Translations under genes and position numbers: made by a program | Assembly: GCA_046597055.1 (NCBI GenBank) | Contig: JBKJLC010000152.1 | Location: 1-16,279 of the forward strand | Direction: 5' to 3' | DNA from: Kofleriaceae bacterium | GTDB taxonomy: Bacteria > Myxococcota_A > Polyangia > Haliangiales > Haliangiaceae | Length of the DNA stretch: 16,279 nt | Shown: positions 2,255 through 14,377 of the stretch, piece by piece | How positions within the stretch are numbered: the first letter of the stretch is position 1 | Layout: each line of letters opens with the position of its first letter | The notes under the pieces: generated by a model | What the model saw: only the letters and a program-made list of their open reading frames with translations | Told to the model about the DNA's origin: nothing | The model's database searches: none

Positions 2255-3598
2255 CTAGTTCGGCGGCGGCACCGAGGCGGCCCGGGCCGCCTCGGTGGCC
2301 GGGATCGACTCGTTGCGGCGCATGAGCACCGGCAGGAGGTACCTGGCGACCTCGCCGAACACGTTGATCTCGGGCTCGAGCATCTTGCCGATGCCCTGGG
2401 CGGTGATCAGCGCGACCAGCACCAGCGTCATGTCGGTCACCGGCCGCACGTGGTAGCGCCGGCCGATCGCGTACATGTCGTTGATCAGGCTGCCGTAGTC
2501 GAGCTCGCCGATGTCCTGCTTGCGGATGCGAATCGCGAACAGCTCGACCTCCTTGCGCAGCGCGGCCCAGTCGACCTCGCCGAGGTAGAGATGGAAGCGG
2601 CGCAGGTGGCTGACCAGGTCGTCGGGGGTGCCCATCGCCAGGCACTTCGACATGTCGATGAACTGGATCAGCACGTCCTCCTGGAGGTGCTTGCACAGGC
2701 CGAGGTCGAGCACGACCACCTGGTCGTTGTCGCGCACGAACATGTTGCCGGGGTGGAGGTCGGCGTGGAGGAAGCCGTCGTCGAAGCACATCTTGAACAT
2801 CGTCATGCGCACGGTCTCGGCGACCTTCGAGTGCCGCCCCGGCGGCAGCGCGTCGACCTTGGTGCCGCGCACGAACTCCATGGTCAGGACCCGCTCGCTG
2901 CACAGCGTGGGCACCAGCTCGGGGAACGTGACCCGGTCCTTCCAGGTGACGAACTTGTCCTGGAACATGCGGTTGTTGTCGGCCTCGATCCGCAGGTCGG
3001 TCTGGTCGTGGATCGCCTCGACGAAGTGGCGGAGGTGCCCGACCGGATCCGACAGCCGGATCCGCGGGTGCAGCGCGCCGAGCTTCGCGAAGCCGAGCAA
3101 GATCGTCGCGTCGCGCTCGACCTGGCGGCGGACGTCGGGCCGCAGCACCTTGACCGCGACCTCGCGGCCGTCGCTCAGCCGGGCCCGGTGGACCTGGGCC
3201 ACCGACGCCGCCGCGACCGGGGTCTCGTCGAGCTCGGCGAACAGCGCGGCGACCGGGCGGCCGAAGTCGGCCTCGATCGTCTGCTTCACGCGCGCGAAGC
3301 GGAACGGCGGCAGCCGGTCCTGCAGCGTGCGCAGCTGGGTGATGACCTCGGGCGAGAACAGATCGGGGCGGGTGCTCATCACCTGCCCCATCTTGATGAA
3401 GGTCGCCCCCAGCGAGGTCATCACCTGGCGCAGCCACCAGCCGCGCAGGCGACCGACCGTCTGCACCCGGCGCGCGCGCGGGAACACGCACAGCGTCCCC
3501 AGCCGGGCGACGCCATAGACGAGCCCCGCCAGCAGCACCACCAGGAACAGGTGGAGGAAGTGGAGGACGTTGCCAGGCCAGCGCAGGAGACGTCGCAC
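2255..3598 (-). CDS. AarF/ABC1/UbiB family atypical protein kinase-like protein
   Basis: [18 protein letters not shown] (KxGQ motif), [12 protein letters not shown] (Ala-rich loop), [13 protein letters not shown] and LDLG. Confidence 0.95.
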
Positions 3599-3693: not shown

Positions 3694-5613
3694 TTATTCG
3701 GTGGCGCGCTTGAGGATCAAGAACTCGACGCGGCGATTCTTCGCGTACGCCTGCTCGGTCGACTTGCGCTCGATCGGCTGGGTCTCGCCGTAGCCCTGGC
3801 CCTCGAGGCGATCGGCGGCGATGCCCTTGTCGGCCAGGTACTTCACGACCGACTTGGCGCGCTTGTCGGACAGGCTGAGGTTGTAGGCGTCGTTGCCGCG
3901 CTCGTCGGTGTGGCCCTGGATCTCGATCAGCTGGATGTCGGGGTTGCCCTCGAGGGTCGCCGCCACCGCGTCGAGGATCGGGAACGACTCCGACTTGATG
4001 ACGGCCTTGTTGTACTCGAAGTACACCTTGTCGAGGATCTCGATCTTGGTGTCGGTCACGACCACGCGTCCGCGATCCGGACAGCCGTCCTCGTCCTCGA
4101 AGCCGTTCTTGGTCTCCGGCTCGTTGGGGCACTTGTCGTCGACGTCGAGGATCTTGTCCTTGTCGTTGTCGGGATCCGGGCAGCCGTCCTCGTCCTCGAA
4201 GTCGTCCTTGTCCTCGGGGTCGTTCGGGCACAGGTCGTCGACATCGAGGATTCCGTCGTCGTCGTTGTCGGGATCCGGGCAGCCGTCCTCGTCCTTGAAC
4301 TTGTCGAAGTCCTCGGGGTCGTCCGGGCACTGGTCGACGTCGTCGAGCAGCCCGTCGCCATCACGGTCATTCTTGTTGCCCTCCGGACAGCCGTCCTCGT
4401 CCTCGAAGTCGTCCTTGTCCTCGGGGTTGAGCGGGCACTTGTCGTCCTCGTCGAGGATGCCGTCCTTGTCGTTGTCGGGCTCGGGGCAACCGTCCTCGTC
4501 CTCGAACTGATCGAAGTCCTCGGGGCTGTCGGGGCAGTCGTCGACGTCATCCTTGAGGCCGTCGCCGTCGCGGTCGCCGATGTTCGGCTCGAACACGATG
4601 CCGATGAACGCGCGCGCCTTGGGGCTGCCGACCTGGCCCGGCATGATGCCGGTGCCACCGCCGAGGGTGAGGAACGAGTTGCGGGCCAGGTAGACCTTGA
4701 TGCCGCCGATCGCCTCGAGCGGGAAGTAGTTGCTGCCGCCGAGCGGGACCGCGCCATAGACCTCGCCGACGATGTCGAACTTCTGCGGGGTCAGCGCGTA
4801 GGCGAGGCCGACGCCGACCGGCAGCTCGGTGCCGGTGTTGAACGACTCCATCGTCTGCGGGGTCGGATCCTGGCCGTCCTGTACGTCGGCGCCGGTGTCC
4901 TGGTAGGTCGTGCTGCCGGTGCGGTAGCGGATGCCGGCGTTGAGCGCCATGCGGAAGCGGCGCTCGTCGCCGAACTCCTTGTCGAGGACGACCATGCCCT
5001 GTGGCGTGATCTTGTCCTCCCCGAGGAACTTGTCGGGCTCGCTCGCGGTCGGCAGGTAGAGTGAGCCGACCACGCCCAGGCCGATCTTGGGCCCGCGTGA
5101 GGTCTTGAGGAAGCGCGTCTTCAGGTGGACGCCGACGTTGCCGAGGCCCTGGCCGTCGATCTTGAAGCGGCGCGAGTCGTTGTTGTTGGCCGGGTCGCCC
5201 TCGTCGTCGGGACCGCGGTCACCGGACACGATCAGGAACGGCACCGACACGCCGAGCTCGAGCTCGGCCGGGCCGAGCTTGAGGCCGGCCGCGGCGATCA
5301 AGGTCGGCGTGATCACGTTGTCGATCGACATCGTGGTGCCGTTGGGGCCCTCGAACTCGAGCAGCTTGTAGCCCCAGTCGGTGACGAGACCGAACGAGAA
5401 CTCCTTGTGGCCGAGCATCTGCGACGCGTTGACCGTCAGGTACCCGCGCGAGTCCATCGCGTGGTGGAACGCGTTGATGTTGATGTTGCCGGCCGGCTTG
5501 TCGGCCGACTGGGCCGCGGCGACGGTGGGCAGCGCTGCCAGACCGACCACGGCAACCGGGAGGATGAAGCGGCGACCGATCGGTGCCGAACGAATCAACG
5601 ACCGCAAGGGCAT
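3694..5613 (-). CDS. OmpA-family outer-membrane protein: signal peptide, predicted beta-barrel, thrombospondin type-3 repeats, OmpA C-terminal peptidoglycan-binding domain (TraB-like architecture)
   Basis: Signal peptide ending AAA-Q; amphipathic beta-strand region; five Asp/Cys-rich repeats; VYFEYNKA..., [31 protein letters not shown] and NRRVEF. GGGAGG SD. Confidence 0.93.
4075..4575 (-). repeat. Five intragenic ~99-bp (33-aa) thrombospondin type-3-like Ca2+-binding repeats
   Basis: Consensus [31 protein letters not shown] occurs five times in the translation. Confidence 0.92.
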
Positions 5614-5687
5614 GGAGCCTCCCAGAAAACCGGATGAGGGAGAGGTCAGTAGGGGTGTGCCCGACCGCCCAACCCAAGGGTGGCCAT

Positions 5688-5717
5688 GAGTTACAACAGG
5701 TCAGGCCGGAGGGTCAA
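5688..5717 (-). promoter_or_regulatory. Candidate sigma70-type promoter for the OmpA/TSP3 gene
   Basis: TTGACC (5717-5712), 18 nt, TAACTC (5693-5688); the -10 is imperfect. Confidence 0.35.
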
Positions 5718-5771
5718 CGAAACCGACCCCCGCATGCACGTGAGCGGGTCCGGTCTGCGGCCCAAGAGGCG

Positions 5772-5792
5772 CCGCCACCACGAGAGTGGCGG
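5772..5792. other. GC-rich hairpin downstream of the FHA gene (possible weak terminator or stability hairpin)
   Basis: CCGCCAC-N7-GTGGCGG; no proper U-tract. Confidence 0.3.
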
Positions 5793-5823
5793 GGCCGGCC
5801 TGCTCGGTTACACGGGCGCGCGA

Positions 5824-7752
5824 TTAATCGAGCGAGACGCCGTTGGCGAGGCAGCGCTGGCGGATCAGCGACTGCCGGCTGACCGGCAACAGCGGGTAGT
5901 ACTGCTTGGCCTTCGCCGTGTTCTTGAGGTTGCAGGCCGCCAGCGCGGCGGTCGTCATCGCCAGCAGCTTGGTCGAGCTGTCGGGCTTGGCCCGCAGCGC
6001 CTGCTCGGCCACGTTGAGCGCGCGGCCCCACTGCGAGGCCTTGGCCGCGGTCTGAGCCTCGGCGCTGAGCTCGGTCGCGCTGCGACCGGTCGGGGCGGTG
6101 CCGCCATCGCCGCTCGGCTTGTCGACGCTGGGGCTGGTGCCACCGCCGGTCCCGGGGCCGGTGCTGGCGACCGCATCTTCGCAGGGCACCGCCGACACCA
6201 CGTCGCGGGCGTCGGGGAACACCCGGGCCGCGTCGACGGCGAGCCGGCGCAGGTCCCTGCACTTCCGGGCCTTGGCCAGGGCCTGGGCGTCGCGCTTCTT
6301 CTCGACCAGAAACTGGTCGTGGAGCTGGTCGTACTGGTCGCGCGCCTTGTTCTTGTAGACCGAGTCGCTGGCGAGCTTCTCGAACAGCACGACCGCGCGG
6401 TCGTACTGCTTGCGCTGCGCGGCCTCGACGAAGCGGCCGTACTCGATCTCGTGCTGCAGCTCGCGCTTGGCCTGATCCGCGATCGCCCGCGCGTCCGTGT
6501 TGTCGGGCTCGAGCTTGAGCAGCTGCTGGGCGACGTTGGACGCCTCGGCCCACTTGCTGCCCTCCATCGCGGCCCGCGCATCGGTCATGAGCGCGGCGAC
6601 CCGGGCCGGGTCGACGGACGGGGTCACGGTGCCGGTGGCGGCGGCCGCGTCGATCGTCTCGGGCGCCACGACCGCCGCGGTGCCCGGGGTCGCGCCGGTG
6701 CCAGGCCCCGTGTCCACCGCCGTGCCGGTCCCGTTCTCCACCGCCGTGCCGGGACCGGCATGAGCGATCGCGACGTCGGGCGCCGTGCCGGGGCCGGTCT
6801 GGCCGGCGCCCCCCGGCTCGCTGGCCAGGTTGCCCGACGGCTTCTTGCTGCCGCCGCTCATGACCACCGCGACCACGCCGCCGACGACGACCAGGCCCAG
6901 CAGCGCGTAGATCCAGCCTCGCTTGCTGCCGGTCGGCACGTCGACGATCTGGGCGTCGCGGCCGAACACGAAGTCTTCGCCCGACTCGACGAAGCGCAGC
7001 CGCACGTGGCCGAGGTCGACGGTGTCACCGCGGCGCAGCTCGACCTTGCCGTAGTCCTCGCCGTTGACCCGCACGCCGTTGGACGACTGCAGGTCCATGA
7101 TCGTGTAGCGACCGGTGTCCGGCTCGCGGACGATCTTGGCGTGGTTGCGGCTGATCGATCGGTGGTTGATGACGATGTCGTTCTCGTCGGTCCGCCCGAT
7201 CACCATCTGCGGCTTGGTGAGCTGGAACTCACGGCCGGCGAAGTTCGAGGACAGCACGACCACCCGGGCCGGGCTGCCGTTCGTGCTGCTCAGCGGCACC
7301 GCGGTCGCGACCGCGCGCGCGCCGGGGTCGGTGTCGGCCAGGGCGATCCCGGCCGACACCGCCGGCGTCATCGGCTGGGTCGAGCGGGCCAGCATCGCGG
7401 CGTCGAGCCGCTCGATCGGCTGGGTCCGCGCGTCCTCGTACGGGACCGGCGGCTGCTCGGTGCCCTCGGCCTTGAGCTCGATGAGGTAGTCGCCGATCTG
7501 GACTCGATCGCTGACCGTGAGCACCGTGCGCTGGGAGATGCGGGTGCCGTTGACGCGGACACCGTTGTAGCTGCCGAGGTCCTCGATCGCGACCGAACCG
7601 TTCGCGCGCGAGATCTTCGCGTGCTTGCGCGACACGTTCCGCTCGGTGAGCCGGATCGTGTTGCCCTCCTTGCGGCCGATCGTGATCTCGTCGCGAATCA
7701 GGGGGACGACCGTCGTCTTACCCTCGTCATCCTGGATGACTAGCTTGAACAT
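5824..7752 (-). CDS. Bitopic membrane protein with two cytoplasmic FHA domains and a C-terminal TPR-like helical region
   Basis: FHA1: ITIGR...NVSRKHA...DLGSYNG. FHA2: VIGR...SISRNHA...DLQSSNG. TM helix WIYALLGLVVVGGVVAVVM, then a G/T/P/A-rich linker, TPR-like helices (WAEASNVAQQLLKLEPDNTDA) and paired Cys. Confidence 0.92.
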   Translation of the reverse strand: MFKLVIQDDEGKTTVVPLIRDEITIGRKEGNTIRLTERNVSRKHAKISRANGSVAIEDLGSYNGVRVNGTRISQRTVLTVSDRVQIGDYLIELKAEGTEQPPVPYEDARTQPIERLDAAMLARSTQPMTPAVSAGIALADTDPGARAVATAVPLSSTNGSPARVVVLSSNFAGREFQLTKPQMVIGRTDENDIVINHRSISRNHAKIVREPDTGRYTIMDLQSSNGVRVNGEDYGKVELRRGDTVDLGHVRLRFVESGEDFVFGRDAQIVDVPTGSKRGWIYALLGLVVVGGVVAVVMSGGSKKPSGNLASEPGGAGQTGPGTAPDVAIAHAGPGTAVENGTGTAVDTGPGTGATPGTAAVVAPETIDAAAATGTVTPSVDPARVAALMTDARAAMEGSKWAEASNVAQQLLKLEPDNTDARAIADQAKRELQHEIEYGRFVEAAQRKQYDRAVVLFEKLASDSVYKNKARDQYDQLHDQFLVEKKRDAQALAKARKCRDLRRLAVDAARVFPDARDVVSAVPCEDAVASTGPGTGGGTSPSVDKPSGDGGTAPTGRSATELSAEAQTAAKASQWGRALNVAEQALRAKPDSSTKLLAMTTAALAACNLKNTAKAKQYYPLLPVSRQSLIRQRCLANGVSLD

Positions 7753-7765
7753 CGGCTGGTTCCCC

Positions 7766-7790
7766 CGCTAACCATCGAGAAAGGTTAGCG
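7766..7790. promoter_or_regulatory. Perfect 8-bp inverted repeat directly upstream of the FHA gene's ribosome-binding region
   Basis: CGCTAACC-N9-GGTTAGCG. Confidence 0.4.
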
Positions 7791-7838
7791 ATACGCCCTG
7801 GGTTGATACGGTTCGGAGACGTACGCGTCGCAACTGCT

Positions 7839-9128
7839 TCACTTCGACCCCAGCAGGCGCTGTGCGGTTTGGTATGCGATCCGGAGCTGATAGTCGTCGG
7901 CGAGGCGTGCCGCGAGTATGTCACGGCTTCCGGAAGCTTGGCCAGCCGGGGCGGCCGCGTTGGTCGCCGGTGTCCTACCTGCCACCACCACCTCGGCCTC
8001 GAACTCGGTGACCTCGAGATCGGGCTCGATGCCCTTGCCCTCGACCTCGCGACCGGACGGCGTGACGTAGCGGTGGGTCGTGACCTTGAGGCCGCTGCCG
8101 TCGAGGAGATCGAAATAGGTCTGGATCGCGCCCTTGCCGTAGGTGCGCATGCCGACCACGGTCGCGCGTTTGTGGTCCTGCAGCGCGCCCGCGAGGATCT
8201 CGGCGGCCGAGGCGGTCTCGGCGTTGACCAGGACGACGACCTTGCTGGAGATTGCCGCTCCGCCGGCGCGGGCATCGTGGGTCTCGACCTCGGTGGTGCG
8301 GCCGCGGATCGTGACGATGCGGCCCTTGTCGAGGAAGTGATCGGCGACCGCGATCGCCTGCTCGAGCAGGCCCCCCGAGTCGGTGCGTAGGTCGATGATG
8401 ATCACGTCGCTGGCGCGAGCGCTGTTCAGGCCGCCCAGCGCAGTGGCGACGTCGCTCGCGGTCGCCTCCTGGAACCGGCGGATCGACAGGTAGCCGATGC
8501 GCGGGCTCAGCGACTCCCAGGTCACCGACGGCACCTTGATCTGCGCGCGCACCAGGTCGACGGTCTGCGGTCGCTGGCCGGCGCGCAGGTACTCGACGGT
8601 GACCCGGGTGCCGGTCGCGCCGCGCAGCCGCGCGTCCCAGTAACGCTCGTCGTGGAGCCCGCTGCCGTCGGGCTCCACGGTGGCGACGCCATCGATGGTC
8701 AACAGGCGGTCGGCGGCGGCGAGGCCGGCGCTGGCCGCCGGCGAGCCCGCGATGACCTCGTCGACGATCGGCCAGGCCTTGGCCTGGGGCATCGCGTCGT
8801 CGGCCATGCCGGGGCCGAGCACCAGGCCGACCCCGGGAAACTCGCCGTCGGTGTCCTCGCGCAGGCGCTTGTACTCGGTGGGCGTGAAGAAGGCCGAGTA
8901 GGCGTCGAGCGACGTCAGCATGCCGCGGGCGGCGGCATAGAGCAGCTTGCGCTCCTCGACCGGCTCGACGAACTGACGCGACGCGTACGACAGCGCCTGG
9001 GCGAAGGTGTCGAGGGTGCGATACCGGGCCGCCTCGGGCCGCTTGGGCCGGGGCGCGGCCACCGCACCGACCGCGACCGCGACCGCGGCACCGGCCACGA
9101 AGACAGCCGCGTGCGAGGCCCTCGACAT
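7839..9128 (-). CDS. ctpA: S41 family carboxy-terminal processing protease (CtpA-like) with PDZ domain
   Basis: ARGMLTSLDAYSAFF, GEFPGVG, SPAASAGL..DRLLTIDG (PDZ), IGYLSIRRF, IIDLR..GG, TASAAEI (catalytic Ser), GMRTYGKG (catalytic Lys), YVTPSG and GIEPD. Confidence 0.95.
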   Translation of the reverse strand: MSRASHAAVFVAGAAVAVAVGAVAAPRPKRPEAARYRTLDTFAQALSYASRQFVEPVEERKLLYAAARGMLTSLDAYSAFFTPTEYKRLREDTDGEFPGVGLVLGPGMADDAMPQAKAWPIVDEVIAGSPAASAGLAAADRLLTIDGVATVEPDGSGLHDERYWDARLRGATGTRVTVEYLRAGQRPQTVDLVRAQIKVPSVTWESLSPRIGYLSIRRFQEATASDVATALGGLNSARASDVIIIDLRTDSGGLLEQAIAVADHFLDKGRIVTIRGRTTEVETHDARAGGAAISSKVVVLVNAETASAAEILAGALQDHKRATVVGMRTYGKGAIQTYFDLLDGSGLKVTTHRYVTPSGREVEGKGIEPDLEVTEFEAEVVVAGRTPATNAAAPAGQASGSRDILAARLADDYQLRIAYQTAQRLLGSK

Positions 9129-9135
9129 CCGCGCG

Positions 9136-9141
9136 ATGGTA
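9136..9141 (-). promoter_or_regulatory. -10 hexamer, putative internal leaderless promoter of ctpA
   Basis: TACCAT 7 nt upstream of ATG 9128; no SD. Confidence 0.5.
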
Positions 9142-9178
9142 TCGCGGCGGCCGACCGGGCGCCAACCGGCGGGCCCGG

Positions 9179-10045
9179 TCAGGTCCCGGGCGCGAGCAGC
9201 GGCTCGGGATCGACCGGCGTACCGCCGGGGCCGACCCCGAGGCGCACCTCGAGGTACACGCGACGCTTGAGCGGATGGCCGATGCGACCGCCGCGGGCGA
9301 CCGGCACGTCGGGCGCGAACGCGACCGGCGCCAGCTTCGCGATCACCGTCCAGTAGCCGCCGTGGTCGATGATCACGCCGTGGTCGAGGCCGCGGATCGG
9401 ACCGGCGTAGCGGATCACGCCGGCGGCCGGCGCGACCACGTCGGCGTCGGCCAGCACGTCGAAGTCGACCCCGCGCCGCGCGAGGATGGCCCCCGAGCGC
9501 TCGTGGACGACGGTGCCGAAGCGCCGCGCCACCGCGCCGGCGACCGGGCGCGCCAGCGGCACCGGCACCGCCATCAGCGGCACCGCGCGGTCGCGCTCGA
9601 TCCGCGCGATCGCCGCGGCGAGCAGCCTCGCCTCGTCGGCGAGCTGGGTGACCTCGGCCTGATCGCGGGCCAGCAGCAGGCGCGCGGTGGCGCGGCTGCG
9701 CGCGACCGCCATGCGGCGCTCGGGCGCGACCGTGAGCGGCGAGCCCGCGCCGCGCAGGAGCTTATATGCGATCCGCAGCCGCTGTTGACGGGCCGCGGCG
9801 CGCTCGGCGCGCTTGGCCTCCACCTGGCCGTGGGCCCGGCTGGCCGAGGCAAGCTGGGCGGCGAGCAGGTCGGCCACCGACGACGGCACCGGCGGGTCAG
9901 TCGCCACGGCGGCGGGGGGCGCCGCGGGATCCGCGACGTCGGCGACCGCAGCGAGCGCGGTGGTCGCGAGGAGCGCCGCGACGGTCGCGGCCAGGACCGC
10001 GGCCCGGCTACCCGCGGGCATCCCGCCCCGAGGCGAGGACGCCAC
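9179..10045 (-). CDS. envC: EnvC-like protein: signal peptide, short coiled coil, degenerate LytM/M23 domain (start may be ATG 10021)
   Basis: PVAGAVARRFG...GVDF...VVAPAAGVIRYAGPIRGLDHGVIIDHG.YWTVIAKL...V..G..IG...VYLEVR...PVDP fits the M23 fold. The zinc-binding His residues of HxxxD and HxH are absent. It sits between ftsX and ctpA. Confidence 0.8.
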   Translation of the reverse strand: MASSPRGGMPAGSRAAVLAATVAALLATTALAAVADVADPAAPPAAVATDPPVPSSVADLLAAQLASASRAHGQVEAKRAERAAARQQRLRIAYKLLRGAGSPLTVAPERRMAVARSRATARLLLARDQAEVTQLADEARLLAAAIARIERDRAVPLMAVPVPLARPVAGAVARRFGTVVHERSGAILARRGVDFDVLADADVVAPAAGVIRYAGPIRGLDHGVIIDHGGYWTVIAKLAPVAFAPDVPVARGGRIGHPLKRRVYLEVRLGVGPGGTPVDPEPLLAPGT

Positions 10046-10895
10046 CGATCAGGCCGAGCAGCGCGCCGGCGCCGACCAGCGCCGCCGCGCGGGTGACCGG
10101 CCACGCGGTGACCTCGCTGGCCCCGCCGAGCGCGGGCGCGACGTCGATGCGGAACAGCTGGACCAGGGCCGCCGCCGCGACCAGCGCGAGCCCGGCGCCG
10201 GCCGCGCCCAGCACGGTGCCCGCGACGATCGCGGGCCCGCGCACGAACGCCGGGCTGGCGCCCAGCCAGGCCAGCGCCGCGCTCTCGTCGGTGCCGTCGG
10301 CGAGCCGCAGCCGCACCGCCGCCGCGACCAGGACCGCGGCGCCGCCGCCGATCACGAGCAGCAGCACCCAGGCCAGCCGCTGCAGGCGCGCCAGCGCGTC
10401 GCCGAGCGGCGCGGTGTAGTCGCGGGTGATCTCGACGTCGTCGACGCCGCCGGCGGCCCGCAGCTCGGCGACCAGCGCGCTCTGACCGATCACGTCGGCC
10501 ATGCCGGGGGCCAGGGTGACCTCGATCGAGATCGGCAGGCTGCCGGGCTCGACCCCGGCGAGCAGCTCGTCGTGCGAGCCGAGCGCGGCGCGCAGGCGGT
10601 CGTCGGCCTCGGCGGCGCCGACCACGCGCGCGGCATCGACGCCGTCGACCCGCCCGAGGTGGGCCGCGATCACGGCGGCGCGCTCGGGGGTCGCGCCCTC
10701 GTCGAGGTAGATGACCATGCTCGCCTGGGCTTGCAGGTCGCGCGACCAGGCGCCGACCCGACGCGCGGCGAGATCGGTGACGGCGACGCCGACCAGCGCG
10801 GCCGCCACCGCCAGCACCGCCCAGATCGAGGCGATCGGCCGGCGCGCCAGCGCGCGCACGCTGCGGGTGACGGTGGAGGTCAGCGCGGTGAGCAT
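10008..10895 (-). CDS. ftsX: FtsX-like permease (divergent; 295 aa from ATG 10895)
   Basis: Four hydrophobic segments with a large loop after TM1 (MVIYLDEG...GVDAARVV..AEA...SLPISIEVTL...GVDDV) and LGASPAFVRGP, resembling FtsX LVGAT..FI..P. The ATG overlaps the upstream TGA (TGATG). Confidence 0.85.
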   Translation of the reverse strand: MLTALTSTVTRSVRALARRPIASIWAVLAVAAALVGVAVTDLAARRVGAWSRDLQAQASMVIYLDEGATPERAAVIAAHLGRVDGVDAARVVGAAEADDRLRAALGSHDELLAGVEPGSLPISIEVTLAPGMADVIGQSALVAELRAAGGVDDVEITRDYTAPLGDALARLQRLAWVLLLVIGGGAAVLVAAAVRLRLADGTDESAALAWLGASPAFVRGPAIVAGTVLGAAGAGLALVAAAALVQLFRIDVAPALGGASEVTAWPVTRAAALVGAGALLGLIGGVLASGRDARG

Positions 10896-11746
10896 CACAG
10901 CCGATGCCCGGCCGAGCGCGCCACCGGGAACGGCAGGACCCGGAGGTCCGGGTCGACGGTCGGGATCGCGTCGCCGCTGGTGCCCGGCTCGACCTCGCTG
11001 CCCGCGTCGGCGACCGGCGGCGCCGGCACCGGCCGCGAGATCTCGGCCACCACGTGGTCGGCGGCGTCGAGCTCGTCGGCGACCACCGCCGCGACATCGA
11101 CGATCCGGTGGTGATGCAGGGTGAGCGCGCGCCAGCCGCGGCGGGCGGCGGCCGCGACCAGGTGCGGCTCGCGCGCGAGCACCACGCAGGCGGCGCCGGC
11201 GTCGGCCAGCTCGGCGGTCAGCACCGCGAACCGCTCGGCGCCGTCGGCATCCTGGTGGCTGGTCGGCTGGTCGGCGATCAGGACGTCCGGGTTCCGGACG
11301 AACGCGCGGGCCCACGCGACCCGCTGGCGCGCCGCCATCGGCAGCGCGGCGACCAGGACGTCGGCCGGGACGTCGACCGCGACCAGGACCTGGGCGGCTC
11401 GGACCAGGCGGAGCGCGCGCGGGACGCCGGTCACCTCCAGCGCGAGCGCGACGTTGGCCAGCGCGGTGCGATCGTCGATCAGCGCGAGGTCCTGTGGGAT
11501 GACGCCGACCCGGCGCCGCAGCGCCGCCTTCGACGACGCCCGCAGCCGGCCCAGATCGCGGCCGGCGACGGCGATCGTGCCGACCGCGTCGAGTCGACCG
11601 GCCAGCAGCGCGGTGATCGTGGTGGCGCCGGCCCCGGCGGGCGCGCCGAGGAGCACGACCTCGCGGGCGGCGACCGCGAGGTCAGCGCCATCGAGCACGG
11701 TGGGTCCGTGCACGTGGGCGAACGTCACCCCGACCAGCTCGATCAT
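10895..11746 (-). CDS. ftsE: FtsE-like ABC ATP-binding-fold protein with degenerate catalytic motifs (283 aa from ATG 11746)
   Basis: MIELVGVTF...[64 protein letters not shown] all follow FtsE. Walker A reads [10 protein letters not shown], signature LPMAA, Walker B IADQ, switch LARE. Confidence 0.85.
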
Positions 11747-11753
11747 CGCCACG

Positions 11754-11782
11754 TTGGTACTGCGCCCCGGCGGCGTGGGCAA
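11754..11782 (-). promoter_or_regulatory. Candidate sigma70-type promoter of the ftsE-like operon
   Basis: TTGCCC (11782-11777), 17 nt, TACCAA (11759-11754), 7 nt, ATG 11746. Confidence 0.45.
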
Positions 11783-11820
11783 AAAAACGGTGCTGGCGCG
11801 CGCCGGTGCGCGCTTCTCGG

Positions 11821-11832: not shown

Positions 11833-12540
11833 ATGCGGATCTGGGGCGTGGCCCTCGCGATCGTGGCGGGCTGCCGCGGCACCAGCCCCGACCCCCGGGT
11901 CGACGACCTGAAGCGCCAGCTGGTCGAGGCGCAGGGCCGACTCGAGGCGATCGAGCAGAACGGCACCCGCATCGACGTCCGCCGGGTCGCGCTCGAGCTG
12001 GCCGCGCTCGGCCCCGACGCCGGCATCTCCGGCCCGCCCGGGCCCGAGGGCCCGCCGGGACCGCTCGGTCCGATCGGCGCAGCGGGACCGCCCGGGCCCG
12101 CGGGCGTCGGTCCCGAAGGCCCACCCGGCCCGACCGGGCCGCCGGGTCCCCAGGGCGCCGAGGGGACCCAGGGCATCCAGGGCCTGCAGGGACCGCAGGG
12201 CCTGCAGGGGACCCAGGGCGTGCAAGGCCCCAAGGGGCCGGCCGGCCCGCCGGGCGCGTACGCGGGCAAGACCGACCTGTCGCGGCGCGAGGCGCGGGTC
12301 TCGGTCGGCCCCGGCCTCACCGCCTCGGTGGTCGCCACCTGCGAGCGGGCCCGCGACCTCGTCATCACCGGCGGCTGCTACGCCGATCCGATGTGGATGG
12401 CCGACCTGGTATCGGCCCGGCCGCTCGGCCTCGGCGACGCGCAGGCCGCGTCGAGCTGGCGCTGCGACTACCGCAACCACAGCACGCAGCAGGCGATCGA
12501 GGTGGTGGCCGAGGTCTACTGCGTCGCGCCGCGGCAGTGA
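11833..12540 (+). CDS. Collagen-like lipoprotein (lipobox, coiled coil, Gly-X-Y domain, 4-Cys C-terminal beta domain)
   Basis: [14 protein letters not shown] lipobox; heptad segment [20 protein letters not shown]; about 26 Gly-X-Y triplets; C-terminus VVATC...VITGGC...SWRC...EVYC. Confidence 0.88.
12022..12261 (+). repeat. Collagen Gly-X-Y repeat region
   Basis: 9 triplets (GIS..GPA), one Gly-Val interruption, then 17 triplets (GPE..GAY). Confidence 0.95.
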
Positions 12541-12630: not shown

Positions 12631-13767
12631 TCAGTTGGGCGCCCGATAGGTCGCGGTGATGGCGTAGGTCGCCGAAGAGAAGCCGCGCACCATCACGTAG
12701 GCGGTGGTCTGCCCGGCGGGCACGCTCAACGTGCACTTCTCGGTCGCCGAGTCGAGGTACGGCCGGCAGGCATAGCTGGACGTGGTCGGCGCCGAGCCGA
12801 ACCGCACGTACAGGTCGGGATCACCGGAGCCGGTCATCGACACCGTGAGGGTCGAGCCCGCGATCACGGCCAGGGCCGGCGGGAGCTGCTTCGAGACGCG
12901 CAGGCCGACCGAGCCGCTCCAGTTCTGGGTCTTGTCGACGCCGTCGGGCGGCGGCGGCGGCGGCGGGTTGCCACCGGGCGCGCCGTACAGCGCGGCGATG
13001 CCGTCGGCGTCGCGCTGGGTGAACGCCAGGTTCTGCGACGAGCCGTTGCACTGCGGGTAGTGCATCACCGAGCCGGAGTCGTACGGCGTCAGCGCGCGCC
13101 AGCTGGTGTCCTCGAAGCAGGTGCCGGCCTCGGGCCGGGTGTGCTCGTGACGGAAGCCGAGCGCGTGACCGAGCTCGTGCGCGATGATGTTCTTGAGCGG
13201 CCAGCCGACGTTGCCGAACGAGCTGCTGTCGATGATCACGTTGCGGCCGCTGCGGCCCTGGTCCGGGAAGAACGCGCGCGCCAGGTAGCTCTGCCCGGAG
13301 ATCGGGCGGACGTCGAAGACGACGTTGTTGTTGGTCGCGGTGCAGTTCGCGTCCTCGGCCGGCACATAGATGAAGTTCACGTTGCCGCGGACTTCCCAGC
13401 CGAGGTCGGTCGCCTGACGGAACGCCTCGACGACCGTGGCCTTGTTGCTCCCGAAGTTGTTGCTCACGCAGTACGTGAGGTTGAGCTTCTGGGTGTCGGT
13501 CCACTTGGCGTCGGCGCCACCGGACCGGTGCACGATGAGCTCGCCCTCACCGAAGACCGAGTCGTAGAACTCGCGGAGCGCCTTCTCGCCGTGGATCGGC
13601 GTGTCGCCGTTCACGATGTACGCGCCGCCTTCCCACGGCTCGAGATAGGTCTGATCGCGGAACTCTTCGAACGAAGGTGTCGGGGTCGACAGGTCTGGAT
13701 CGCCCACCATGCACCCCGCCGCCATCGCCGCGAGCCACGCGCCTACAAAGAACTTCGAGCGCTTCAT
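12631..13767 (-). CDS. Secreted zinc metalloprotease lipoprotein (metzincin, M57-like) with C-terminal PPC domain
   Basis: GAGGAGG SD before ATG 13767; lipobox-like [16 protein letters not shown] pro-region; [11 protein letters not shown] (HExxHxxGxxH); Met-turn SVMHY; poly-Pro linker; PPC motif [22 protein letters not shown]...EKC. Confidence 0.92.
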
Positions 13768-13798
13768 GATATCGGTCCTCCTCATGCGAGGCGGACTC

Positions 13799-13814
13799 TT
13801 CACGCGGAGTGCCA
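13799..13814 (-). promoter_or_regulatory. Candidate sigma54 (-24/-12) promoter of the metalloprotease gene
   Basis: TGGCAC-TCCGC-GTGAA against consensus TGGCAC-N5-TTGCW: perfect -24, imperfect -12. Sits just upstream of the SD. Confidence 0.5.
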
Positions 13815-14377
13815 GCTTCTCCGACGCGGCGCACCGCGCGCCGACCCTCCCGTCCCGAAACGCCACGGCGACGCGCGCGTCACGCCGGTGCGACGCGTCG
13901 TCGAGTTCGCGTTGACCCGGAGTTAGTAAGCCGCAAGACGCAACTCGCGCGTCGATGGGCTGACAAGCCCATGAGCGCGGTCAGGGCGCACCCGAACGGT
14001 GTCATGCAGTGTCAGCCAGCCCGCGGCCCCGCGCGCCTCGACGCAACCGGCCATCGACTGAATCGCAGACAGATCGCGCCAGCCCGGCGCACCTCGAGGC
14101 CCCACCCAGAGGTATTTCGCCCCTGTCTGAACGTGCGGTCGGCGTACTCGCGTGTAGGCGAGTCAGCCTCTCGGTAGCAGGTTCAGCCGCGCCCGTCGCG
14201 GCCACGGGCGGCAGAACCGCACCGAGGTTCGGGTTCGGTGACAGCGCGCTCTCGCCCAACCGGGTGGGGTGCCGCTTGGCCGTGCTCCGGGCACTGGGGG
14301 GTCCGGGCGAACGCACCACTTTGTAGGCAACTCCGACCTGGGGCGACCGATGTGCGCCGTGTGAAGGCGAAAAAAAG

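Follow-up and report, generated by a model that had tools for sequence, protein, structure and literature searches.

Loss of the catalytic ATPase motifs in an FtsE orthologue of a Kofleriaceae bacterium and its relatives

The window analyzed here is a stretch of 16,279 nucleotides from a metagenome-assembled genome (MAG) of a Kofleriaceae bacterium. It carries on its minus strand, at positions 10895 to 11746, a gene for an orthologue of the cell division ATPase FtsE in which the Walker A lysine, the signature residues of the ATP-binding cassette (ABC), the catalytic glutamate and the H-loop histidine have all been replaced. The reading frame is intact, the replacements recur throughout the aligned members of the genus, and the pattern of substitution points to purifying selection. 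The FtsE of this uncultured soil and sediment lineage thus probably works without its usual ATP fuel, and we favor, with moderate confidence, a role as a non-hydrolyzing structural subunit of the FtsEX complex.

Passages of a review of FtsEX describe FtsE as the ATPase that energizes the complex, highly conserved in sequence and structure, and present models in which ATP binding and hydrolysis by FtsE drive a conformational change, the signal that releases activators of the EnvC type (PMC11627006). No description of a naturally ATPase-dead FtsE was found in literature listings and abstracts or in those passages of PMC11627006.

RESULTS

Four catalytic motifs are lost in an intact reading frame

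Minus-strand translation of positions 10895 to 11746 yields one open frame of 283 amino acids (aa). In alignments to solved FtsE chains and to 29 orthologues, the residues at its motif positions sit in the catalytic columns. The gene and its motifs are as follows.

10895..11746, minus strand: ftsE orthologue, 283 aa, ABC nucleotide-binding fold with the catalytic motifs lost (pseudo-ATPase); PF00005, 55.5 bits, with TIGR02673 as the best family
11618..11647, minus strand: Walker A remnant, residues 34 to 43 (G34-A-P-A-G-A-G-A41-T-T), from codon reading; Lys absent from 14 of 14 genus rows
11489..11506, minus strand: Q-loop GVIPQD, residues 81 to 86, retained; Gln in 28 of 30 aligned rows
11321..11344, minus strand: ABC signature remnant LPMAARQR, residues 135 to 142, in place of LSGGEQQR or LSAGEQQR, from codon reading and alignment
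11249..11284, minus strand: Walker B and D-loop, residues 155 to 166; Asp159 kept, Glu replaced by Gln160, D-loop SHQD
11165..11185, minus strand: switch/H-loop region VVLAREP, residues 188 to 194, His replaced by Arg192; Arg in 14 of 14 genus rows

The initial annotation had proposed, from the DNA alone, an FtsE-like protein with four catalytic motifs lost in an intact frame, and the codons read here agree with it. The Walker A lysine is replaced by Ala41, whose codon GCC (11626 to 11624) differs at all three bases from AAA and AAG and is therefore not a single-base change from a lysine codon, as had been pointed out. The first glycine of the motif is replaced by Ala35. The signature has lost its serine and second glycine (LPMAA at residues 135 to 139), and in Walker B, which reads VLIAD159-Q160, the catalytic glutamate has given way to a glutamine encoded by CAG at 11269 to 11267. 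The signature LPMAARQR (11344 to 11321), this glutamine, the D-loop PTSHQD and the switch LARE all lay where the annotation had placed them, and its claim that the Q-loop and the structural core are retained also stood, given the glutamine in 28 of 30 rows and an intact predicted fold (see below). Thus, of the features of a catalytically competent ABC ATPase, the protein lacks the Walker A Lys, the signature Ser and Gly, the Walker B Glu and the H-loop His; what remains at the ATP site is a glycine-rich loop, Thr42, Asp159, Gln85 and the conserved Gln160 and Arg192.

Contigs assembled from two further sequencing runs of the study of the possible source sample (run X2, 11150 to 11800; run X3, 11159 to 11386 and 11401 to 11800) showed no difference at the motif codons. 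In a second study, a 536-nucleotide (nt) contig covering 11008 to 11533 has no listed change at either the signature or the Walker B codons. At the Walker A codon that study (X4 and X5) offers only 151-nt pieces with three other letters, which count as no confirmation. Since these substitutions are shared by 13 further genomes of the genus and the contigs of the further runs agree, sequencing error is excluded and the motif losses are real.

A longer frame of 409 aa, starting from a GTG at 12124, was rejected as the gene because all 13 full-length orthologues of the genus align from the MI(E/A/Q)L start region.

The protein is the positional orthologue of FtsE

Among 142 NCBIfam families, the FtsE model TIGR02673 gave the best score with the window protein (126.4 bits, versus 91.8 for the next family), as the FtsE-like assignment of the initial annotation led one to expect, although this score lies below the equivalog cut-off of the model (264.85 bits). 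The top sequence matches among solved structures were FtsE chains, the best being the Pseudomonas aeruginosa FtsE(E163Q) chain 8i6r_B (6.3e-23, HMMER). An AlphaFold2 model built on 29 orthologues reached a mean pLDDT of 89.9, with about 97 over residues 1 to 220 and at least 94 in each 10-residue block of that region. It predicts an intact ABC fold, for which Foldseek ranked Escherichia coli FtsE first and second (8ymc_A and 8hd0_A; target TM scores of 0.91 and 0.93 and root mean square deviations of 1.5 and 1.4 Å over 218 to 219 columns). In view of the best profile, the best solved-structure match, the fold and a conserved operon position, the 283-aa frame is the positional orthologue of FtsE and no stray paralogue.

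Homologues in public annotation carry the name "cell division transport system ATP-binding protein", so that the degenerate state has gone unnoticed by automatic pipelines. Among 27 related loci in public genome contigs there were two orthologues, of 64% and 53% identity; the remaining 25, from Clostridium, Nocardia and others, coded for generic ABC ATPases and were set aside.

Three states of FtsE occur among the relatives

Orthologues were sought in 40 relatives and in the genome of the window, which gave at least 30 loci, of which 30 sequences were aligned. Full orthologues were found in 13 of the 16 genomes of the genus, at 52 to 67% identity (blastp). The aligned rows fell into three states.

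Canonical, 8 of 30 rows: four from one order-level family and four from class level; GPSGAGK(T/S)T, LS(G/A)GEQQR, ADEPTGNLD and ATHD all kept
Intermediate, 6 of 30 rows (G017, G018, G020, G021, G024 and G025): H-loop His lost and the A-loop aromatic lost in five of the six; Walker A Lys and Walker B Glu kept
Fully degenerate, 16 of 30 rows: 14 of 14 genus rows and G023 and G019, which represent two sister genera; Walker A Lys, signature Ser..Gly, Walker B Glu and H-loop His lost

The degenerate motifs are thus not peculiar to one genome but clade-wide. The intermediate proteins come from relatives more distant than the degenerate ones, and the canonical proteins from relatives that are more distant again. 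Retention was nearly complete elsewhere in the site: the Walker B Asp is present in all 30 rows, the D-loop Asp in 29 and the Q-loop Gln in 28. The A-loop aromatic position is variable in the genus, where it is occupied by His, Cys, Phe or Tyr. Scores on the FtsE model dropped with the state, from 264.7, 250.1 and 248.4 bits for canonical proteins through 176.3 and 160.4 for intermediate ones to 126.4 for that of the window.

In a maximum-likelihood tree of the neighboring FtsX, M23, FHA and S41 proteins, from which FtsE was left out, the eight fully degenerate rows sampled formed one clade (SH-aLRT 96), within which the place of G019 is unsure because of its long branch; this topology fits a single loss. 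Synteny, the graded series from canonical through intermediate to degenerate proteins and this consistent tree together indicate descent from a canonical FtsE.

The loss extends well beyond these genomes. In a library of 1.84 billion representatives of clusters at 50% identity, 37 proteins matched the window FtsE at an E value of 1e-30 or better. Among the best 150 matches, 99 were single-domain in size and 95 covered the three key sites; of these 95, 21 were fully degenerate, 30 intermediate, 34 canonical and 10 mixed, so that the full loss is found in no fewer than 21 public clusters at 50% identity. The 21 fully degenerate representatives have Gln (17) or His (3) at the Glu position and Arg (17) at the His position, and 20 of them keep the Walker B Asp.

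The altered gene is under purifying selection

The frame is intact in all 14 genus sequences and in both sister genera. Nei-Gojobori dN/dS ratios among genus members ranged from 0.30 to 0.67 for FtsE, similar to those of its neighbors (FtsX, 0.15 to 0.60; M23, 0.45 to 0.63; FHA, 0.24 to 0.64), values that are rough because dS is compressed by GC3 bias. The 536-nt contig of the second study, which gives a less noisy signal, belongs to a near-identical strain and shows 18 differences from the window, 16 of them listed; of these 16, 14 are synonymous and 2 non-synonymous (A229T and L112I).

Conservation within the protein was not uniform. Residues 133 to 167, that is, the former signature, the helix that follows it and the Walker B/D-loop segment, are the most conserved part in the genus, with pairwise identities of 0.76, 0.94 and 0.79; the corresponding values in canonical FtsE are 0.78, 0.70 and 0.88. 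The same residues of degenerate FtsE are only 0.33 to 0.56 identical to canonical FtsE. For its part, the P-loop shows lower conservation among genus members (0.68) than among canonical relatives (0.83). Because the altered block is highly conserved in the genus yet unlike the canonical one, the motifs were replaced and then fixed rather than eroded. Taken together, these patterns indicate that the window FtsE is under purifying selection and is neither an error nor a dying gene.

No canonical FtsE was found in the genome

The source genome is an 8.4-Mb MAG in 303 contigs. A canonical FtsE was not found in it, since none of its 82 matches to the FtsE model reached the cut-off. The window gene ranks 21st among them, and the eight best matches each score higher on the MacB, LolD, DarD, DevA or CysA models. 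In four other genomes of the genus, the next-best matches to the window FtsE were of the MacB type. The MAG has one strong FtsX match (1.8e-34) and four others with E values of 1.3e-5 or weaker, each of these four lying within a few kilobases of a high-scoring ATPase. Normal ftsA and ftsZ genes are present in it, the FtsZ C-terminal peptide being LDVPTFIRR, together with a single Amidase_3 gene.

Gene order and partner proteins

The ftsE gene heads a row of genes on the minus strand.

10008..10895, minus strand: ftsX, 295 aa; PF18075 FtsX_ECD, 33.7 bits (cut-off 23.5); TIGR00439, 119.5 bits, below the cut-off of 255
9179..10045, minus strand: EnvC-like LytM factor with a short coiled coil and an M23 domain without zinc-binding His; PF01551, 35.6 bits (cut-off 28.7)
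7839..9128, minus strand: S41 C-terminal processing peptidase of the Ctp/Prc type with a PDZ domain; PF03572, 173.9 bits; TIGR00225, 261.9 bits, above the cut-off of 218.6
5824..7752, minus strand: protein with two FHA domains, from domain matches
3694..5613, minus strand: OmpA-family protein, from domain matches

The TGA stop of ftsE overlaps the ATG start of ftsX (TGATG, 10897 to 10893), the A being shared. The order ftsE-ftsX-M23, usually followed by the S41, FHA and OmpA genes, recurred in the 20 relatives whose neighborhoods were retrieved, the most distant of them at class level: FtsX adjoins FtsE in 19 of the 20 related loci, M23 is present in 18, and the order is the same in canonical and degenerate lineages. 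That the six-gene order from ftsE to the OmpA-family gene (3694 to 11746) is kept across the class points to a larger envelope or division module to which the FHA and OmpA-like proteins would belong. The S41 protein has a strong second match, to the MXAN_5808 family model, in agreement with a lineage of Deltaproteobacteria in the old sense, probably Myxococcota.

The LytM factor has the same short architecture in all three FtsE states (275 to 298 aa; about 288 aa in the window), and in all three the His positions of what we take to be the M23 zinc-ligand motif are occupied by Arg, Lys and Tyr. With architecture, length and His replacements alike in the three states, a change in this partner does not explain the motif loss. 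The only difference seen was a four-residue insertion (VGPGG-like) near the C terminus of the LytM factor, present in intermediate and degenerate lineages. Of the five aligned canonical rows, four lack it and one, G037, has a different short insert at that site.

In FtsX, canonical relatives share the motif R(K/R)(D/E)EIEIL(K/R)LVGAT in a cytoplasmic loop that is taken to be the coupling-helix region. This motif is changed in the degenerate clade, and in the window the loop (about residues 195 to 250) reads ..DGTDESAALAWLGAS.. Three members of the genus (G005, G015 and G002) have a 6-residue deletion in FtsX after this motif, and the loop that follows is shorter.

The C-terminal tail

Two features lie beyond the ABC domain of FtsE.

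10898..11095, minus strand: C-terminal extension, residues 218 to 283, acidic and Pro-rich, predicted to be disordered (pLDDT of 38 to 76 from residue 221)
10898..10939, minus strand: conserved terminal peptide, consensus NVVPFPxxR(S/A)xG, from orthologue alignments

An acidic, Pro-rich tail had been noted in the initial annotation, and this part of the description stood; the tail does not end at LRVLPFP, as proposed there, and the protein continues past LPFP. The terminal peptide follows a disordered linker of variable length. It is kept across the order, including in FtsE proteins with canonical ATPase motifs, and is absent from the four class-level relatives examined; in the library it occurs in 15 of the 21 degenerate, 20 of the 30 intermediate and 3 of the 34 canonical representatives. 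As the tail predates the motif loss, it cannot explain that loss by itself.

A search of the tails of the 41,546 open frames of at least 100 aa in the genome returned two matches to the motif. FtsE is the only division-related frame with it, and the other match looked like the C terminus of an aminoacyl-tRNA synthetase. Prediction of a complex between FtsE residues 215 to 283 and FtsA plus the FtsZ core of the same genome gave a score of 0.00, the mark being 0.32, a result that counts neither for nor against such a contact. That the tail might mimic the FtsZ C-terminal peptide LDVPTFIRR is speculative, the likeness being loose (VPxF versus VPFP).

Other genes of the window

The G+C content of the window is 66 to 79%. 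The sequencing runs containing the stretch carry soil and sediment metagenome labels, and no RNA data set was listed for it. The DNA upstream of ftsE codes, on the opposite strand, for a collagen-repeat lipoprotein.

11833..12540, plus strand: lipoprotein-like gene divergent from ftsE, with a signal peptide ending in Cys, collagen triple-helix repeats (Pfam Collagen, 45.7 bits) and a Cys-containing C-terminal domain
12631..13866, minus strand: secreted zincin metalloprotease (Matrixin/M10, 39.3 bits, plus a PPC pre-peptidase domain), just past the collagen-like gene
2255..3598, minus strand: ABC1/UbiB-type atypical kinase gene (PF03109, 199.9 bits), with no apparent link to the FtsE finding

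N- or C-terminal parts of the collagen-like lipoprotein adjoin ftsE in 11 of the 20 related loci, all 11 with intermediate or degenerate FtsE and none of them among the seven canonical loci, an association that may simply be phylogeny, kin being non-independent. The matrixin-like protease was found upstream of ftsE in five of the seven fully degenerate relatives fetched and in none of the 13 others, and makes a curious pair with the collagen-like protein.

DISCUSSION

FtsE as a probable non-hydrolyzing subunit

With the Lys, the signature Ser and Gly, the Glu and the H-loop His all gone from a homodimeric subunit, both composite ATP sites would be dead, and with them the cycle of ATP binding and hydrolysis would be lost. 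Established ABC enzymology indicates that hydrolysis and the ATP-sandwich dimer are lost; the further claim of a complete inability to bind nucleotide is less certain. The ABC fold is kept, as is the Q-loop/helical region, to which the coupling helix of FtsX docks in solved FtsEX structures, and FtsE is still produced along with FtsX. FtsE would then act as a nucleotide-independent structural subunit that keeps FtsX stable in the membrane and the FtsX/EnvC-like module fixed in a single conformation at the divisome. Septal cell-wall hydrolysis would now be controlled from elsewhere, possible sites being the co-encoded S41 protease and partners of the C-terminal peptide. It is the context of the gene that suggests both the scaffold role and the new site of control.

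Several observations weigh against this account. A passive scaffold explains the strong conservation of the former ATP-site block no better than would a ligand still bound there or a retained role in dimer contacts, and the retained glycine-rich loop, Thr42, Asp159, Gln85, Gln160 and Arg192 could together hold a nucleotide or another phosphate ligand. Comparison of the EnvC-like partner across the three states revealed no change, for instance loss of the coiled coil or of a restraining segment, that would account for ATP independence. A canonical FtsE was not found, and its absence is unproven because the MAG is 94% complete with 7.6% contamination. As for the sampling, 11 of the relatives searched fall outside the 30-locus set, and three of the 16 genus genomes, all fragmented assemblies, have no full orthologue (none in G001 and G009 and a 71-residue fragment of 58% identity in G007). 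Finally, the neighbor-gene tree, with its unsure placement of the long-branched G019, was made by a quick method, and the genus dS values behind the dN/dS ratios (0.4 to 0.8) are compressed by an extreme GC3 bias.

An extended version of the account, to which we give only a small chance of being right, would have the changes occur stepwise. The H-loop His and the A-loop aromatic would have been lost first, leaving a slow or binding-only FtsE, and the Lys, the signature and the Glu would have followed. A closed FtsE dimer, permanent and nucleotide-free, would then be formed through Gln160, Arg192, PMAAR and SHQD and would keep FtsX and the EnvC-like factor locked in an "on" state, and the timing of hydrolysis would pass to the S41 protease and to a binder of the C-terminal peptide.

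Alternative explanations

As the main alternative, FtsE could be a non-hydrolytic switch that still accepts ATP or another nucleotide, with low affinity or in an altered geometry, Arg192 or Arg139/141 replacing the charge of the Lys and Gln160 blocking hydrolysis as in the engineered E-to-Q mutants; FtsEX would then sense the nucleotide level or stay locked in a closed, ATP-like form. Such a switch is in agreement with the invariance of Gly38 and Gly40 in the orthologue alignment and the retention of Thr/Ser42, Asp159 (30 of 30 rows) and Gln85 (28 of 30). It also accords with the non-random replacements in the library (Gln in 17 and His in 3 of 21 at the Glu position, Arg in 17 of 21 at the His position) and with the position of the former ATP-site block as the best-conserved part of the protein. 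Moreover, according to the entry titles, solved FtsE(E163Q) complexes were captured with ATP (8i6r, 8w6j and 8jia). However, four motifs were lost together, including the first Walker A Gly and both of the signature residues that clamp the gamma-phosphate in the opposite subunit, the P-loop is the less conserved one in the genus, and the A-loop aromatic is replaced. On balance, we regard a nucleotide switch as possible but unlikely.

Somewhat more doubtful is that the former ATP-sandwich surface has been repurposed, either as a permanent nucleotide-free dimer or as a new site for a protein or ligand that sets the conformation of FtsX, with the tail peptide recruiting a divisome or regulatory partner. 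This explanation overlaps with both the scaffold and the switch. The 0.76 to 0.94 identity of residues 133 to 167 within the genus, with new residues, would be in accordance with it, as would the order-wide retention of NVVPFPxxR (in 15 of 21 degenerate and 20 of 30 intermediate representatives) and the changed loop motif of FtsX in the degenerate clade. Nevertheless, the tail predates the motif loss, no partner candidate emerged, and the monomer model does not dock the tail with confidence, its pLDDT there being 38 to 78.

That FtsEX is on its way out, its ftsE frame kept only by translational coupling to ftsX, we consider very improbable: FtsE is indeed far less conserved than FtsA (87 to 92% identity in the genus) and FtsZ (79 to 86% for full-length genus matches), and its profile score is far under the family cut-off, but the frame is open in all 14 genus sequences and both sister genera, dN/dS is below 1 and like that of the neighbors, strain differences are 14 synonymous to 2 non-synonymous, the altered motifs are near-invariant, and the full loss spans at least 21 clusters at 50% identity. 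Equally hard to credit is that another ABC ATPase, MacB- or LolD-like, powers FtsX, either by itself or in a heterodimer with the dead FtsE, since, although the genome codes for many type VII-like ATPases scoring 180 to 210 bits on the FtsE model, four of the best-scoring ones lie within a few kilobases of a weak FtsX match that is probably their own permease, other families are a better fit for the eight best, each heterodimer site would, from ABC architecture, still lack the Walker A Lys or the signature, and the TGATG overlap of ftsE and ftsX argues for 1:1 co-production.

Comparison with known systems

The probably non-hydrolyzing FtsE described here belongs to a system that functions like, and descends from, FtsEX-EnvC. 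The FtsEX-EnvC complexes of E. coli, P. aeruginosa and Vibrio cholerae (8hd0, 8ymc, 8w6j, 8i6o/8i6r and 8tzj) share with it the gene order, ftsE-ftsX followed by a coiled-coil LytM factor with a dead M23 domain, the fold (target TM scores of 0.87 to 0.93) and an FtsX with an extracellular domain (PF18075). They differ in that the window FtsE lacks the Lys, the signature, the Glu and the H-loop His and carries a 66-residue tail, and its EnvC-like partner is short (about 288 aa).

The K41M and D162N variants of E. coli FtsE are ATPase-dead, and such laboratory mutants are loss-of-function for division. The window FtsE naturally has the same Glu-to-Gln change as the engineered ATPase-dead proteins E163Q and E165Q, with which FtsEX structures were trapped (8i6r, 8w6j and 8jia), together with the Walker A Lys replacement. 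Unlike in those mutants, the changes are fixed, are joined with loss of the signature and the H-loop His, are kept under purifying selection and occur in the only FtsE found.

Natural loss of the Glu, the signature or the H-loop in an ABC domain with a structural or regulatory role is likewise seen in CFTR, TM287/288 and Pdr5. These are heterodimeric ABC transporters with one degenerate and one consensus site that keep the Walker A Lys, whereas the window FtsE is homodimeric, with both sites predicted to be dead and the Lys gone. A precedent for pseudoenzyme regulators exists in the same pathway in the LytM factors of the EnvC, NlpD and DipM type, in which a dead M23 domain regulates amidases; the neighbor at 9179 to 10045 is one of them. 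Those factors have another fold and act on the periplasmic side, whereas FtsE is the cytoplasmic motor subunit.

Significance

A homodimeric ABC domain without any consensus site is a rare example of its kind. In addition, the three evolutionary stages, canonical, H-loop-less and fully dead, occur in one bacterial class and can be compared biochemically. A lineage that keeps FtsE, FtsX and the LytM factor with ATP sites that are, by their motifs, dead would separate the structural or recruiting role of FtsEX from its role as a motor.

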